Source: Puniceicoccaceae bacterium
GTDB lineage: Bacteria > Verrucomicrobiota > Verrucomicrobiia > Opitutales > Oceanipulchritudinaceae
NCBI GenBank assembly: GCA_040830765.1
Contig: JBFOMH010000038.1
Span: 1-25,051 of the forward strand
Length of the DNA stretch: 25,051 bases
Reading direction: 5' to 3'
Shown in pieces: positions 161 to 3,815 of the stretch. Position 1 is the first letter of the stretch; each line of letters opens with the position of its first letter. A model generated the notes under the pieces. The model searched no databases and was not told where the DNA came from. It saw nothing but the letters and a program-made list of their open reading frames with translations. The translations under genes and the position numbers were made by a program.

Positions 161-198
161 AAAGAGGCGGGGCCCGATTGGACCCCCGCCTCTTTTTT
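161..198. terminator. Intrinsic terminator, probably bidirectional, closing microprotein cassette 1
   Basis: Stem AAAGAGGCGGGG...CCCCGCCTCTTT with a T-run on the plus strand and TTTCATTTTT on the minus strand. It lies about 30 nt after the stop of the ORF at 229-312. Confidence 0.8.
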
Positions 199-228
199 AG
201 CAAGCGATAGTGATGAATTGTTTGAGCG

Positions 229-312
229 TTACTGCTTCCGGCGGCCGTTCTGAACCCATTCGTCGAAGCCAAAGGCCAGTAGCAGTGTTGTTGTCAGGGC
301 GATGATAAACAT
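229..312 (-). CDS. Microprotein B1, 27 aa, MFIIALTTTLLLAFGFDEWVQNGRRKQ (hydrophobic N-terminus, basic tail)
   Basis: Translated by hand. RBS GGAGAACGAACC precedes the ATG. Its first 13 residues are identical to the paralog at 793-852 despite 7 synonymous codon differences. Confidence 0.8.
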   Translation of the reverse strand: MFIIALTTTLLLAFGFDEWVQNGRRKQ

Positions 313-343
313 GGTTCGTTCTCCAGTTTGAAAGTATCGTGGC

Positions 344-433
344 TTAGTAAGCCTGGTTGGCGTTGGCGGCTTCCTTCAGTTCGAAGGCACCGTAAGTGAG
401 AAGGCAGGCAGAGATGAAGATGATGAGTGTCAT
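344..433 (-). CDS. Microprotein A1, 29 aa, MTLIIFISACLLTYGAFELKEAANANQAY
   Basis: Translated by hand. Same length (90 nt) and ending (TAC TAA) as the paralog at 888-977. It starts about 35 nt downstream of a sigma54-type promoter. Confidence 0.8.
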   Translation of the reverse strand: MTLIIFISACLLTYGAFELKEAANANQAY

Positions 434-467
434 TGTTCGTTCTTTTGTTTAAATTCGCCTATAGTAA

Positions 468-483
468 TGCTGGTCGCGTGCCA
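468..483 (-). promoter_or_regulatory. Sigma54 (RpoN) -24/-12 promoter, cassette 1
   Basis: Minus strand TGGCACGCGACCAGCA: perfect TGGCACG, exact GG-N10-GC spacing, with CAGC in place of TTGC. Repeated in all three cassettes. Confidence 0.8.
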
Positions 484-513
484 ACTTTTTTAAAAACTAC
501 CTAAGTAGCTCTA

Positions 514-526
514 TATCAATTCTTTA
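514..526 (+). promoter_or_regulatory. IHF-like binding site
   Basis: TATCAATTCTTTA matches the E. coli consensus WATCAANNNNTTR exactly. It lies in the AT-rich tract between the sigma54 promoter and the upstream palindrome. Confidence 0.55.
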
Positions 527-590
527 TAAACTTTATATATTCATAAACTATTTTGTTTCCTTGGTGCTTTCGACGAAAGTGTCCGGACCG

Positions 591-619
591 GGGACAGGTA
601 TCGTCCCACTTTTGGGACA
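591..619. promoter_or_regulatory. Putative upstream activator sequence, cassette 1
   Basis: GGGACA (591-596), 5 nt, then CGTCCC-ACTTTT-GGGACA (602-619). The same motif and spacing recur in cassettes 2 and 3. Confidence 0.7.
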
Positions 620-708
620 CTCCGCAGTGGAGCCGAAAATGAGAACCAATCCGTAGGATGACCAAGGGTTGTCCTCTCGAAGGCCGCGTCCCGTTTTCAC
701 CAAATACT

Positions 709-742
709 AAAAAAGCGGAGTTCCCCACGAACTCCGCTTTTT
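709..742. terminator. Bidirectional intrinsic terminator closing cassette 2
   Basis: AAAAAGCGGAGTTC-CCCAC-GAACTCCGCTTTTT, a perfect stem with A/T runs on both sides. Confidence 0.85.
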
Positions 743-792
743 CCAAGCGATGACTTGTTGTTGATCTCAGCGATTAACGCTCCTGGTGGCTT

Positions 793-1258: not shown

Positions 1259-1333
1259 GCTCCCATAGTGTAATGGATAACACGCTGCCCTCCGGAGGCA
1301 GAAATCGGGGTTCGAATCCCTGTGGGAGTACCA
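1259..1333 (+). tRNA. tRNA-Arg (anticodon CCG)
   Basis: Acceptor GCTCCCA/TGGGAGT, D-arm GTGT/ACAC, anticodon stem CTGCC/GGCAG with loop CT-CCG-GA, T-loop TTCGAAT and encoded CCA. Confidence 0.97.
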
Positions 1334-1455
1334 TTCGACAAGCTCATGGCAGGCCAACGACAAGCTCATGGCAGGCCAACGACAAGCTCATGGCAGGCCT
1401 TCGACAAGCTCATGGCAGGCCACATGCGGCTCACTGCGTTCGCTCTTGGCAGGCC
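1334..1455 (+). repeat. 22-nt tandem repeat x4, (TT/AA)CGACAAGCTCATGGCAGGCC, plus a degenerate partial copy
   Basis: Units at 1334-1355, 1356-1377, 1378-1399 and 1400-1421 share an identical 20-nt core. Partial copy CTCTTGGCAGGCC at 1443-1455. Confidence 0.92.
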
Positions 1456-1487
1456 ACTTTGCTGAACTCGCAAGAGGCCGAAAGGTA

Positions 1488-2258
1488 TTATGAGAGCCAG
1501 CTGATAAGCGTCTGGGCGTCCTGTTGAAATTGCTCAACCGAGTTGTTGGGGACAAATTCAAGCAAGGCATATCGGTCATCGGGAATGGCTGCAATGGAAT
1601 CGAGGCAGGGCTTCCAGAGGTCGGTCCCTTCCGAGAGGGCAAGCCTTGGGAATGGGGGCTTAGGAGCACCCTCCCAATGAAAGACGTGGATGTTGGAGAG
1701 GCATCCCTTGAAGGCTTCGATTTCCTGCAAGCGCTGCTCGAGTGGGCTGCCGTGCGGGGGCTGCCAGTACATCTTGAGGTTCGGGTGCTGGGCAGCTTCC
1801 ATTAAGCGAAGGGCCTCTTCCAGGGTTTCCGTAAAGGTGTTCCGGTGGAACTCAAAGGCCACTTCAATGCCTTTGTCCGCAGCCATGGCCGCCGCCTCAC
1901 GACTACGGCGGACAACCGATTCAAAATGAGTTTCCGACTTTTCCTGGGTCAGGGATCCGGCCCAGATGCGAATGACAGGAGCGCCGAGTGCCTCAGCTGC
2001 CTGCAGGATAGGTTCAAAGGGTACAGGTTCCTCATCCGCAGACTCCCGGCCCATGTAATAGGATCCGTACCCAGCGACCTCAAGTCCCGCCTCCCGGGTT
2101 TGGTCCCCCACCTTGCGGGCATTTTCCAGATCTTCAAGGGGGACGTGAACATCGCTTCCCCATTCAATACCTACCAGGCCAGCTTCCGAGCTTAGCTGGA
2201 TTAAGGATTCGGGAGTTTCGTCACGGAAAGTTATCGAGCAAATACCGGGTTTGATCAT
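1488..2258 (-). CDS. Sugar phosphate isomerase/epimerase (xylose-isomerase-like TIM barrel)
   Basis: 256 aa with GIEW, IRIWAG, AFEFH, NIHVFHW and LLEF motifs typical of the AP-endonuclease-2 / xylose-isomerase-like barrel. Confidence 0.8.
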   Translation of the reverse strand: MIKPGICSITFRDETPESLIQLSSEAGLVGIEWGSDVHVPLEDLENARKVGDQTREAGLEVAGYGSYYMGRESADEEPVPFEPILQAAEALGAPVIRIWAGSLTQEKSETHFESVVRRSREAAAMAADKGIEVAFEFHRNTFTETLEEALRLMEAAQHPNLKMYWQPPHGSPLEQRLQEIEAFKGCLSNIHVFHWEGAPKPPFPRLALSEGTDLWKPCLDSIAAIPDDRYALLEFVPNNSVEQFQQDAQTLISWLS

Positions 2259-2357
2259 TTGGAGTAGTAGAAGGGGTGAACTGGAGTCCGGGCATGGCCC
2301 AGGGGTGAGAGGAACGTAAGAGCTGTGTCGGTTCAGTAGACTGGGGTGTCGCCTGCT

Positions 2358-3362
2358 TCAGGCTATAAACGCTACGGCTTCCCGGGAAATCTCGTGGTGG
2401 AGGGGTTCGCCGGCCAACCAGCGATCCATTTCATCGATAATATAGGCTGCCATCCGGCGAGCCTCGGGACCCATTGAGCCGGCCAGGTGGGGCGTGAGGA
2501 CGACATTGGGCAAGTCGAAGAGGGGGCAACCGGTTTCCGGTGGCTCGGGATCGGTAACGTCGATACAGGCAGTGACATCTTTACGCTCGCGGAGGAATTC
2601 AATCATCTCGGCCTGGTTCATGACAGCCCCACGGGCCGTATTGATGAGGGTCGATTCCGGTTTCATCCTGTCGAGCAGGGCGCGGTCGATAATTCCCGTG
2701 GTCGATTCCTTCAAGGGAAGATGAATGGAGACCACGTCACAGGATGCGAAGATTTCCTCCATGGAGGCATACTTAATGCCATACTCATCGGCTAGGCGAT
2801 CGTCCGGATGGCCAGTGTAAACGAGCACCTGTAAGTCGAACGGCTGCAGGAATTCGCAGAGCTTGCGGGCGATTTGGCCAAAGGAAACAATCCCCACCTT
2901 GGAGCGGTAATTGCCAGGTACCGGCTTGTTGCATCCCCAGAACTGCGGGTTGTCCTCCTTGGTCAGCTGCATGTATTTCCAGCCGTGCTTCAGGCTATAG
3001 AGAATCTGGGCCAGGCAGAACTCAGCAACTGGCACGGCATTCGCCGCAACGGCATTGGTAATGCGGATACCGCGGTCCCATGCCGCTTCTGTCATCAAGC
3101 CCTGGATGGTTCCAGCTCCATAAAAGTACATTTCCACCTTCGGCATCGCAGCCAGGAGCTCCTCATCCAGGATGGCCCCGCCCCAGGAGGAGACTATGAC
3201 TTCAGCCTCTGCCAGAATGGACGTGTGTTCGCGCCAGTTCTCCCGCGTTACCAGGGGCTCTGCCATGTCAAAACGTTTGGCTATCTCCTTACGTTCGGAA
3301 TCCCCATACACCCGCTGCAGGCTGTTCTCCGCACAAAAATATACGCCCCTTTTCATTGTCAT
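2358..3362 (-). CDS. D-isomer-specific 2-hydroxyacid dehydrogenase
   Basis: AVPVAEF, DVVSIHLP, LINTARG, DVTDPEP and LTPHLAG supply the catalytic Arg/Glu/His. The Rossmann motif reads GIVSFGQIA. Confidence 0.9.
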   Translation of the reverse strand: MTMKRGVYFCAENSLQRVYGDSERKEIAKRFDMAEPLVTRENWREHTSILAEAEVIVSSWGGAILDEELLAAMPKVEMYFYGAGTIQGLMTEAAWDRGIRITNAVAANAVPVAEFCLAQILYSLKHGWKYMQLTKEDNPQFWGCNKPVPGNYRSKVGIVSFGQIARKLCEFLQPFDLQVLVYTGHPDDRLADEYGIKYASMEEIFASCDVVSIHLPLKESTTGIIDRALLDRMKPESTLINTARGAVMNQAEMIEFLRERKDVTACIDVTDPEPPETGCPLFDLPNVVLTPHLAGSMGPEARRMAAYIIDEMDRWLAGEPLHHEISREAVAFIA

Positions 3363-3486
3363 AGTGGTCCTGTTGTCTGACCTTAAGGTCTAGCATCACC
3401 CGTTATCAGCAACTGCCGAACCATAATTATTGTAGGATTCGGAAAGGAGAAATCGGCTGCGATGGCAATCAATCTGGCAGCAAAAC

Positions 3487-3519
3487 AAAAAAGCGGGACC
3501 CGGGAGTGGGTTCCGCTTT
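3487..3519 (-). terminator. Intrinsic terminator closing cassette 3
   Basis: Minus strand AAAGCGGAACCC-ACTCCC-GGGTCCCGCTTTTTT: a stem with one mismatch followed by a U-run. Confidence 0.75.
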
Positions 3520-3553
3520 GAGTCGGGACAGCGATAAGCCTATGAAAGTGATG

Positions 3554-3631
3554 TCAGGCCCGGAGCGCGTCCTTGAGTTCGATGGCTGCGAACGTCAGCA
3601 GTAAGGCGGTGTAGATGATGATGTAGGTCAT
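3554..3631 (-). CDS. Microprotein A3, 25 aa, MTYIIIYTALLLTFAAIELKDALRA
   Basis: RBS AAGGAACCAACA precedes the ATG. Aligns without gaps to A1/A2 (MTxII, LLT, ELK[ED]A) and has the same promoter architecture. Confidence 0.8.
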   Translation of the reverse strand: MTYIIIYTALLLTFAAIELKDALRA

Positions 3632-3664
3632 TGTTGGTTCCTTGTTGAATTTGCCTCCTATCCT

Positions 3665-3680
3665 TGCTTCACGCGTGCCA
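3665..3680 (-). promoter_or_regulatory. Sigma54 -24/-12 promoter, cassette 3
   Basis: Minus strand TGGCACGCGTGAAGCA with GG-N10-GC spacing. AAAAGTTGGCACGC is identical in all three cassettes. Confidence 0.8.
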
Positions 3681-3786
3681 ACTTTTCAAAATAAGTTGTA
3701 AGACATTGTATACCAATGGTATAAAAATATTAGAAAATATATGGCTATCCACTATCTGGTCGATTCAACCAAACTTTTGTGATTTA

Positions 3787-3815
3787 GGAACACCCTGCGT
3801 CCCAAAAATGGGACA
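3787..3815. promoter_or_regulatory. Putative upstream activator sequence, cassette 3
   Basis: GGAACA (3787-3792), 5 nt, then CGTCCC-AAAAAT-GGGACA (3798-3815). The offset from the promoter is 118 nt. Confidence 0.7.

Follow-up and report, generated by a model that had tools for sequence, protein, structure and literature searches.

Three sigma-54-type promoter modules encoding a family of predicted membrane microproteins in a Puniceicoccaceae bacterium

Small single-pass membrane proteins of the MgrB, AcrZ, KdpF and MgtS types are induced by two-component systems and modulate a kinase or a transporter. Type I toxin-antitoxin systems combine an antisense or divergent small RNA with a structured leader that blocks translation. 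The consensus for sigma-54 promoters is a TGGCACG-N4-TTGCW-like element that contains GG and GC dinucleotides at a fixed spacing. The activator sites of such promoters lie at roughly 80-200 nt upstream, the DNA being bent in between, and their transcription needs rpoN and an activator that hydrolyses ATP. In the Enterobacteriaceae, the GlrK/GlrR (QseE/QseF) system controls the small-RNA genes glmY and glmZ together with sigma-54 and IHF, and the consensus of the GlrR site is given as TGTCN10GACA in the passages of PMC3045617 that describe it. Here, contig JBFOMH010000038.1 of a Puniceicoccaceae bacterium was analyzed over positions 1 to 25,051, the whole of this 25,051-nucleotide stretch being referred to below as the window. 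The minus strand of the window was confirmed to carry three modules, each composed of a stand-alone sigma-54-type promoter and one or two open reading frames (ORFs) for predicted membrane microproteins of 19-29 residues. Sigma-54 enhancers and small membrane proteins are each known already, and their combination as dedicated microprotein cassettes is undescribed in the literature searched: no description of free-standing, multi-copy, enhancer-driven, microprotein-only cassettes was found in full text, subscription journals lying outside the coverage.

Architecture and conservation of the modules

The three modules, termed A, B and C, share one order of parts, which runs from two tandem activator sites through an AT-rich spacer, a -24/-12 promoter and a short leader to one or two ORFs and a terminator. 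The promoter pattern TGGCACG-N6-GCA was found with zero mismatches exactly three times in the 25,051 bases (468-483, 1010-1025 and 3665-3680, all on the minus strand), and four times, against 1.83 expected, when up to one mismatch was allowed. The palindrome GTCCC-N6-GGGAC was also found exactly three times (603-618, 1145-1160 and 3799-3814), where 0.12 was expected and a count of three was reached in 0 of 100 shuffles. From the start of the palindrome to TTGGCAC the distance is 134, 134 and 133 nt in modules A, B and C, respectively. An earlier note on this DNA had described three modules with a shared order and a kept spacing, and these distances, together with the three exact promoters and palindromes, bear that description out. 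The spacer between palindrome and promoter has itself drifted, and only a loose likeness is seen in a three-module alignment.

In module A (all coordinates in this paragraph are on the minus strand), activator site 1 (602-619) has the form TGTC-N10-GACG around an exact palindromic core at 603-618, and activator site 2 (579-596, TGTCC-N7-GGACA) begins 5 nt past it. The AT-rich spacer (485-578, 74% A+T), in which the IHF-like core is degenerate, leads to the sigma-54-type promoter TTGGCACG-N4-CAGCA (468-484), with a predicted transcription start at ~ 457. Downstream lie the ORFs for microprotein A1, of 29 amino acids (MTLIIFISACLLTYGAFELKEAANANQAY; 344-433), and its paralog A2, of 27 amino acids (MFIIALTTTLLLAFGFDEWVQNGRRKQ; 229-312), and then an intrinsic terminator (154-195; -26.6 kcal/mol, z-score -4.45 against shuffled controls). 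Module B comprises a palindromic site 1 (1144-1161), a site 2 with a TGTCCC half-site (1121-1138), an IHF-like core (CAACGACTTA; 1044-1053) with TTGGCA 27 nt downstream, the promoter (1010-1026; predicted start ~ 999), microproteins B1 of 29 amino acids (MTLIIFTSACLLAYGLFELKEAIKPTESY; 888-977) and B2 of 19 amino acids (MFIIALTTTLLLALGVSEL; 793-852), and a terminator (705-743; -23.9 kcal/mol, z-score -5.12). Module C carries a single ORF, for microprotein C1 of 25 amino acids (MTYIIIYTALLLTFAAIELKDALRA; 3554-3631), behind a palindromic site 1 (3798-3815), a site 2 with a TGTTCC half-site (3775-3792), an IHF-like core (CAATGTCTTA; 3699-3708), again with TTGGCA 27 nt downstream, and the promoter (3665-3681; predicted start ~ 3654); its terminator lies at 3481-3519 (-17.0 kcal/mol, z-score -3.19). 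A T run follows the terminator hairpin in each module, and the predicted starts were placed by the usual -12 to +1 distance. The leader motif AGGC(G/A)AATT..AACAA was found in modules A, B and C; the leaders are ~ 25 nt long, were unpaired in centroid single-sequence folds and contain no sequestered ribosome-binding site. On the plus strand, a tRNA-Arg(CCG) gene (1259-1333) diverges from module B and a tRNA-Leu(CAA) gene (3909-3993) from module C.

Just downstream of the module A terminator, positions 70-125 of the minus strand hold CGTCCC and TGTCCC repeats and a TTGGCAC element. The downstream GC of this element is off by one relative to the sigma-54 spacing, and the element is missed by the motif patterns used. 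It could represent the promoter, decayed or variant, of a gene past the window edge.

The occurrence of the cassette in other bacteria was explored by scanning the DNA of species-representative genomes (596 Gb) for the palindrome, a gap of 105-130 nt and TTGGCACG-N6-GC. Since the pattern held only palindrome, gap and promoter, the content found downstream is unbiased. The scan yielded 70 loci; since L004 and L005 are one contig, the pattern was matched 72 times in 69 distinct stretches. The same cassette accounts for six of these matches, which lie in three Opitutales contigs, L005, L009 (an Oceanipulchritudo metagenome-assembled genome, MAG) and L043. In L005, the three scan matches are joined by a fourth module with a slightly different promoter. 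Both L005 and L009 retain the 29-residue ORF, a second ORF of 25 residues, the purine-rich ribosome-binding sites and the terminator, and a tRNA-Arg(CCG) gene diverges from the cassette in L005 as it does in the window.

The three window modules and seven modules from the related contigs were then compared, anchored on either the palindrome or the promoter. Both activator sites, the palindromic first one included, and the promoter are kept in 10 of 10 modules from four genomes, which upholds the architecture of enhancer, AT-rich and IHF-like spacer and -24/-12 promoter that had been proposed earlier for the window. The promoter reads TTGGCA(C/A)(G/A)-N6-GC in all ten, with the spacing of GG and GC fixed. 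The palindrome-to-promoter distance is 133-137 nt in nine modules and 145 nt in one, and the distance from promoter to ATG is 49-51 nt in eight modules and 61-64 nt in those of L043. A second site, in which TGTCCC is followed by a degenerate half site, lies 5-6 nt past the first palindrome in every module, TGTCCC being kept at that offset in at least eight of the ten; sites placed in this way are about two helical turns apart, which would fit an NtrC-type activator bound as adjacent dimers. The A+T content of the spacers is 58-79%. In seven of the ten modules, B and C among them, CAA-N4-TTR lies at exactly 27 nt upstream of TTGGCA, and a conserved TTT.TA tract is seen upstream of it in the promoter-anchored alignment. 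This element fits the core of the IHF consensus WATCARXXXXTTR, as quoted in a passage of PMC3045617.

The microprotein family

All five window peptides belong to one paralogous family, in which a hydrophobic helix of 17 residues is followed by a near-invariant Glu18-Leu-Lys and a short polar tail. The peptides of ORF1, ORF2 and C type align without gaps, indicative of paralogy, and the Glu is invariant in alignments of 15 and of 30 sequences. Over codons 1-20, the pairwise ratio of non-synonymous to synonymous differences per site (pN/pS) was 0.09-0.47 for all 22 pairs for which it was defined, while pS reached 0.5-0.95. Microprotein B2 and its L005 counterpart, for example, are separated by 9.5 synonymous and 2.5 non-synonymous changes. 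The spacer between ORF1 and ORF2 and the 3' untranslated region are poorly conserved. RNAalifold, applied to five bicistronic transcripts, gave no conserved RNA structure besides the terminator (covariation term +2.12, unfavourable), and a search of the window against Rfam returned only two tRNAs at the gathering threshold and, at E up to 1, two more weak rows, neither inside the modules. The tiny ORFs are real protein-coding genes under purifying selection, which supports the earlier reading of them as peptide genes.

Searches of protein databases were run with alignments and profiles as queries. All 25 of the proteins returned by a word-indexed profile search bear the core motif, and most are exactly 29 residues long. 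An exhaustive profile search of 1.84 billion representatives produced 25 matches at E <= 0.001, among which are 23 family members, 17 of them new; P0033 and P0034, long proteins that match low-complexity tail columns only, were dropped. The relatives recovered are all unnamed or annotated as "hypothetical protein". A core-profile search of six-frame translations of the window and the scan loci detected five peptides in the window, six in L005, two in L009 and two in L043, and no copies beyond these. When database relatives and translated loci were pooled, 47 distinct cores were obtained, in addition to two long-tailed L043 forms. The resulting signature consists of Met1, a hydrophobic segment at 2-17 with Leu11-Leu12 and Gly or Ala at 15, Glu or Gln at 18, and Leu, Val or Ile at 19, within a length of 19-29 amino acids. 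Leu11 and Leu12 are each present in 46 of the 47 cores and Gly15 in 45, while position 18 is occupied by Glu in 43 cores and by Gln in the other four. The five window peptides match this signature, position 19 being aliphatic in all but A2, where a Trp makes the sole exception among the 47 cores. Two length classes stand out, one of 29 amino acids (24 cores, 22 of which end in Tyr) and one of 25 amino acids (19 cores).

Eleven database ORFs that were found by peptide alone are annotated as starting at least 17 residues too far upstream. In nine of these, the residues 16-18 codons before the core Met read NWH or TWH, IGT, or LAR or LAC; these are the three-frame translations of TTGGCA(C/T), indicating that the -24 element is kept, at an unchanged distance, in relatives found by their peptides. 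The earlier note had also expected standard gene callers to miss the ORFs. This is true of the forms of 19-27 amino acids, which are mostly absent or mis-extended through the promoter, but not of many 29-residue forms, which are already in public sets.

The peptides have no described family, a point on which the earlier note was right: no match was found in Pfam, NCBIfam or Rfam. With A1, A2, B1 and C1 as queries, NCBIfam gave 0 matches at E up to 10, and Pfam gave nothing above cut-off, the only row being FTR1 (E 0.14; 11.8 bits against 25.3). A feature search of the ESM Atlas reached a best score of 0.76, for an unnamed cluster, and gave no lead. Nothing similar to the cassettes was found among plasmids (tblastn) or phages (blastn). 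A mobile-element origin was considered and set aside, being without support from the window genes or from the plasmid and phage searches.

The physical properties of the peptides agree with the earlier description of small, hydrophobic, membrane-like products. Residues 1-17 have a mean Eisenberg hydrophobicity of 0.70-0.75 and a helical hydrophobic moment of 0.01-0.09, and this combination of high hydrophobicity and low moment looks like that of a membrane span rather than of a surface-active amphipathic helix. The peptides carry a net charge of -1 to +1. Positions 8 (Ser/Thr), 9 (Ala/Thr), 13 (Thr/Ser/Ala) and 15 (Gly) are repeatedly occupied by small or polar residues, which would fall on one face of the helix and suggest a specific helix-helix contact. 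In the L043 forms, the helix is followed by Arg/Pro-rich tails of 30-60 residues. By the positive-inside rule a positively charged segment stays cytoplasmic, and the C terminus is therefore predicted to lie in the cytoplasm.

The enhancer in other operons, a proposed mechanism and its rivals

At least 28 of the scan matches, mostly from Steroidobacteraceae, share one conserved operon behind the same type of enhancer and promoter (e.g. L008, L010, L016 and L050). In L008 (8001-14484), the enhancer and promoter precede genes for an 82-residue single-pass membrane protein, an HlyD-family adaptor, an ABC ATPase, a duplicated FtsX/MacB-type permease (713 bits against the ADOP family cut-off of 622) and a response regulator with receiver, sigma-54-interaction and Fis-HTH domains, in which GAFTDA replaces the usual GAFTGA. 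This regulator falls below every NCBIfam equivalog cut-off, including that for GlrR (312.5 bits against 763). In L041, from Verrucomicrobia, genes for HlyD and an ABC ATPase come after the same enhancer, and then those for two MacB-like permeases, of which the first scores as ADOP and the second is cut at the contig end. An enrichment of sigma-54 promoters at ABC-type antimicrobial-peptide transporter genes in Opitutia is reported in a part of PMC12316311. A scan of the loci for GAFTGA alone gave only the pilR-pilA loci of Nannocystales and three distant genes. In a looser scan, GAFTDA-type sigma-54 activators were found at 26 loci, none of them near the Opitutales cassettes; counted on the same strand and within 8 kb, they accompany 26 of the 72 matches, namely 21 of the 28 conserved-operon matches and five others. 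A regulon whose only products are peptides, as put forward in the earlier note, is not demonstrable from 25 kb, and elsewhere this type of enhancer precedes HlyD/ABC/ADOP-MacB operons and other genes.

Several further features were observed at these loci. The leader of the Steroidobacteraceae operon contains a conserved GCGGC...GCCGC hairpin. In Opitutaceae, palindromes and promoters 105-106 nt apart stand before proteins of 68-102 amino acids (L002, 7674-7982; L045, 8168-8455; L048, 8156-8362) that have two hydrophobic segments and a DY(S/A)R..RPL motif and belong to no Pfam or NCBIfam family. These may be related, distantly, to the long-tailed peptides of L043. No profile match linked them to the cassette peptides, and P0002, P0003, A1 and C1 are 8-29% identical to the L048 protein, sharing only "RPL" after the helix. 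In Oleiharenicola/Lacunisphaera MAGs (L018, 5861-8023; L024, 5876-8038), the enhancer and promoter are followed by genes for a small TonB-C-domain protein, a POT-family peptide transporter and a PilZ-domain protein.

The interpretation that we favour, and hold to be likely, is that each module is an enhancer-dependent, tightly switched mini-operon delivering membrane microproteins that modulate a membrane complex of the same response. The dependence on sigma-54 and on an activator, the insertion into the membrane and the function are all inferred from sequence. An NtrC-type enhancer-binding protein, encoded elsewhere in the genome, would probably bind as two adjacent dimers, one at TGTCCC-N6-GGGACR, ~ 150 nt before the transcription start, and one at TGTCCC-N6/7-(half site), the second site of the tandem, ~ 128 nt before it. 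The AT-rich spacer with its IHF-like CAA-N4-TTR would bend the DNA, the activator would reach the sigma-54 polymerase on TTGGCACG-N4-NAGCA, and the promoter would be opened by ATP hydrolysis. The predicted product is an mRNA of 170-300 nt, with a short unstructured leader and a strong terminator at its end, that would yield one or two members of the single microprotein family. On induction, the peptides would enter the cytoplasmic membrane and there modulate, by binding to it, a larger membrane protein that takes part in the same response. The foremost candidate for this partner is an exporter of the HlyD/ABC/ADOP-MacB type or its sensor kinase, because the same type of enhancer controls such operons in other bacteria.

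A bolder extension of this mechanism, which we regard as doubtful, would place the cassettes and the HlyD/ABC/ADOP-MacB exporter operon in one regulon of an uncharacterised GAFTDA two-component activator, conserved from Gammaproteobacteria to Verrucomicrobia, with the microproteins serving the exporter or its kinase either as dedicated accessory subunits or in feedback regulation. If it were true, an envelope-defence pump would be overlaid by a layer of peptides, which Steroidobacteraceae would retain as the first-cistron protein and which Puniceicoccaceae would have split off and amplified as cassettes.

Note, however, that a number of observations weigh against the favoured interpretation. 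Neither rpoN nor a sigma-54 activator gene is present in the window, and a sigma-54 activator lies within 8 kb of the cassettes in 0 of the six scanned modules. The link to the exporter operon consists of a shared 10-base palindrome and comes from other genomes, not from this one. Four Nannocystales loci (L029, L052, L062 and L067) carry the site between a pilR-like GAFTGA activator gene and a type IV pilin gene, and it could be that several activator families share this type of site. As the site type is common to more than one activator, the assignment of an activator to the window is a lead and not a result. By our own estimate, the scan pattern would be matched ~ 28 times by chance in 596 Gb, so that a part of the 69 loci is noise, and some of the leftover matches (in Streptomyces, Chloroflexota and others) probably arose by chance. 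A hydrophobic stretch of 17 residues is short for a membrane span. Finally, the L043 peptides (55 and 82 amino acids, with Glu at 19) are probable members of the family and were included in the profiles that scored them.

Four other explanations of the modules were weighed against the proposal of membrane modulators. The peptides could be toxins that, like TisB or those of type I toxin-antitoxin systems, are induced and act on the membrane, depolarising it to arrest growth, with an unseen antisense RNA as a check. They are very small and strongly hydrophobic, tandem paralogous copies lie in intergenic DNA beside tRNA genes, and a harmful product would suit tight promoter control. We nevertheless consider such a role unlikely, given the unstructured leader of ~ 25 nt without a sequestered ribosome-binding site, the lack of conserved RNA structure apart from the terminator, and a conserved small-residue face and Glu18 that resemble a specific helix-helix contact more than a generic pore former. 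Nor was a promoter-like site found on the opposite strand in 1-4200, although this is a weak test that used a sigma-70-type consensus only and does not cover the promoter rules of the phylum. Export of the peptides as a surfactant, a signal or a leaderless bacteriocin, through a co-regulated HlyD/ABC/MacB-type exporter and after the manner of tandem phenol-soluble-modulin genes, is improbable. A moment of 0.01-0.09 and a charge of -1 to +1 describe peptides that are neither amphipathic nor cationic; they have no leader or cleavage motif, and the long Arg/Pro-rich tails in L043 fit a membrane anchor with a cytoplasmic tail. It is true that HlyD/ABC/ADOP-MacB operons in other genomes carry the same type of enhancer and that tandem paralogous tiny ORFs would stand here under a response-regulator-type activator, but the window has no exporter gene bearing the enhancer, and its RND operon (5350-11432) has a MarR gene of its own.

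The transcripts might instead act mainly as regulatory RNAs, as do glmY and glmZ under GlrR and sigma-54, with the ORFs being incidental or secondary in a dual-function RNA. For this speaks an architecture that matches the sigma-54/GlrR/IHF-controlled small-RNA genes in the part of PMC3045617 that sets them out, as well as the first 15 nt of the transcript, which are more conserved than a ribosome-binding site alone needs. The pattern of change points the other way, with pN/pS of 0.09-0.47 and many synonymous changes, diverging non-coding parts of the transcript and no covariation. Taken with the failure of Rfam to match anything in the modules even at E up to 1, and with the conservation of peptide sequence, of the 29- and 25-residue length classes and of the C-terminal Tyr (22 of 24 29-mers), this makes a mainly regulatory RNA very improbable. 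Short ORFs are common, 79 of at least 20 amino acids being found in 4.5 kb, and chance ORFs behind a repeated non-coding element, with a functionless resemblance, would be one source of such a pattern. Motif counts far above those in shuffles, modules in four genomes with purifying selection, and 47 distinct cores leave that explanation scarcely credible. Leader-peptide attenuation was rejected: each module closes with a strong terminator, and a convergent gene faces the modules of L005 and L009.

The remaining genes of the window comprise the RND efflux operon with its MarR gene, subunits of a 2-oxoacid:ferredoxin oxidoreductase, a GH5 enzyme, a sulfatase and glycolytic genes. The phosphoglycerate kinase encoded here shares 98% identity with that of a Puniceicoccaceae MAG, 86-87% with those of Oceanipulchritudo MAGs and 82% with that of Puniceicoccales strain CK1056, which bears out the earlier guess of Opitutales. 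Two ORFs without a Pfam match were observed, one of 414 amino acids with repeated "SADG(S/A/T)VIVG"-like units (4100-5344, plus strand) and one of 485 amino acids (11564-13021, minus strand). Between the tRNA-Arg(CCG) gene, 3 bases past its 3' end, and a TIM-barrel gene, four head-to-tail 22-nt units (95% matches) occupy 1336-1422; these repeats could have been left behind by an integration event at the tRNA.

Comparison with described systems

The annotation of microproteins in bacteria is incomplete, and a trigger is known for few of them. Here a whole family is met with a readable and probably stringent switch. With these modules, transcription that depends on an enhancer would extend to genes dedicated to microproteins, in a marine phylum that has been little studied, and they point to an uncharacterised type of sigma-54 activator tied to MacB/ADOP exporters in several phyla. 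They also provide an annotation signature (enhancer, promoter, 49-51 nt, Met-Thr-Leu-Ile-Ile...) for finding genes now missed or mis-extended.

The HlyD/ABC/ADOP-MacB operons share with the cassettes the core GTCCC-N6-GGGAC, a second GTCCC site and a palindrome-promoter spacing of 118-130 nt, and their first cistron encodes a single-pass membrane protein of 82-99 amino acids in at least 28 loci. These first-cistron proteins gave no match to the microprotein profile at E up to 10. The operons are long and include the activator, whereas the window cassettes encode microproteins only and have no activator nearby. With type I toxin-antitoxin systems the cassettes have in common tiny hydrophobic peptides encoded in repeated intergenic copies; they differ in lacking a structured leader, in that an antisense signal was not found, and in their enhancer-dependent promoter.

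The likeness to glmY and glmZ, to the extent that PMC3045617 describes them in the passages concerned, lies in stand-alone, short, paralogous units with a sigma-54 promoter, upstream NtrC-type sites, IHF-type sites in between and a terminator close by. Against the GlrR consensus TGTCN10GACA, site 1 agrees at 7 of 8 bases in window modules A, B and C (TGTC-N10-GACG) and at 8 of 8 in L005_2, L005_3, L005_4, L043_a and L043_b. On the same passages, the cassettes differ in having two sites rather than three and in belonging to another phylum. Their products are translated microproteins without an Rfam match, whereas glmY and glmZ are small RNAs. Moreover, the only activators found beside this type of site score below the NCBIfam equivalog cut-offs, that for GlrR included.

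The MgrB, AcrZ, KdpF and MgtS proteins resemble the cassette peptides in their length of 20-50 amino acids, their one hydrophobic helix and their signal-responsive induction, and the conserved face of the cassette peptides would suit the binding of a partner. There is no sequence relation between the two groups, the cassette peptides having no Pfam or NCBIfam match. The genes also differ in their control, which would be exerted by sigma-54 and an enhancer in the cassettes as opposed to a sigma-70 activator, and in their arrangement, the cassettes being multi-copy, dedicated mini-operons in which two paralogs would be cotranscribed.

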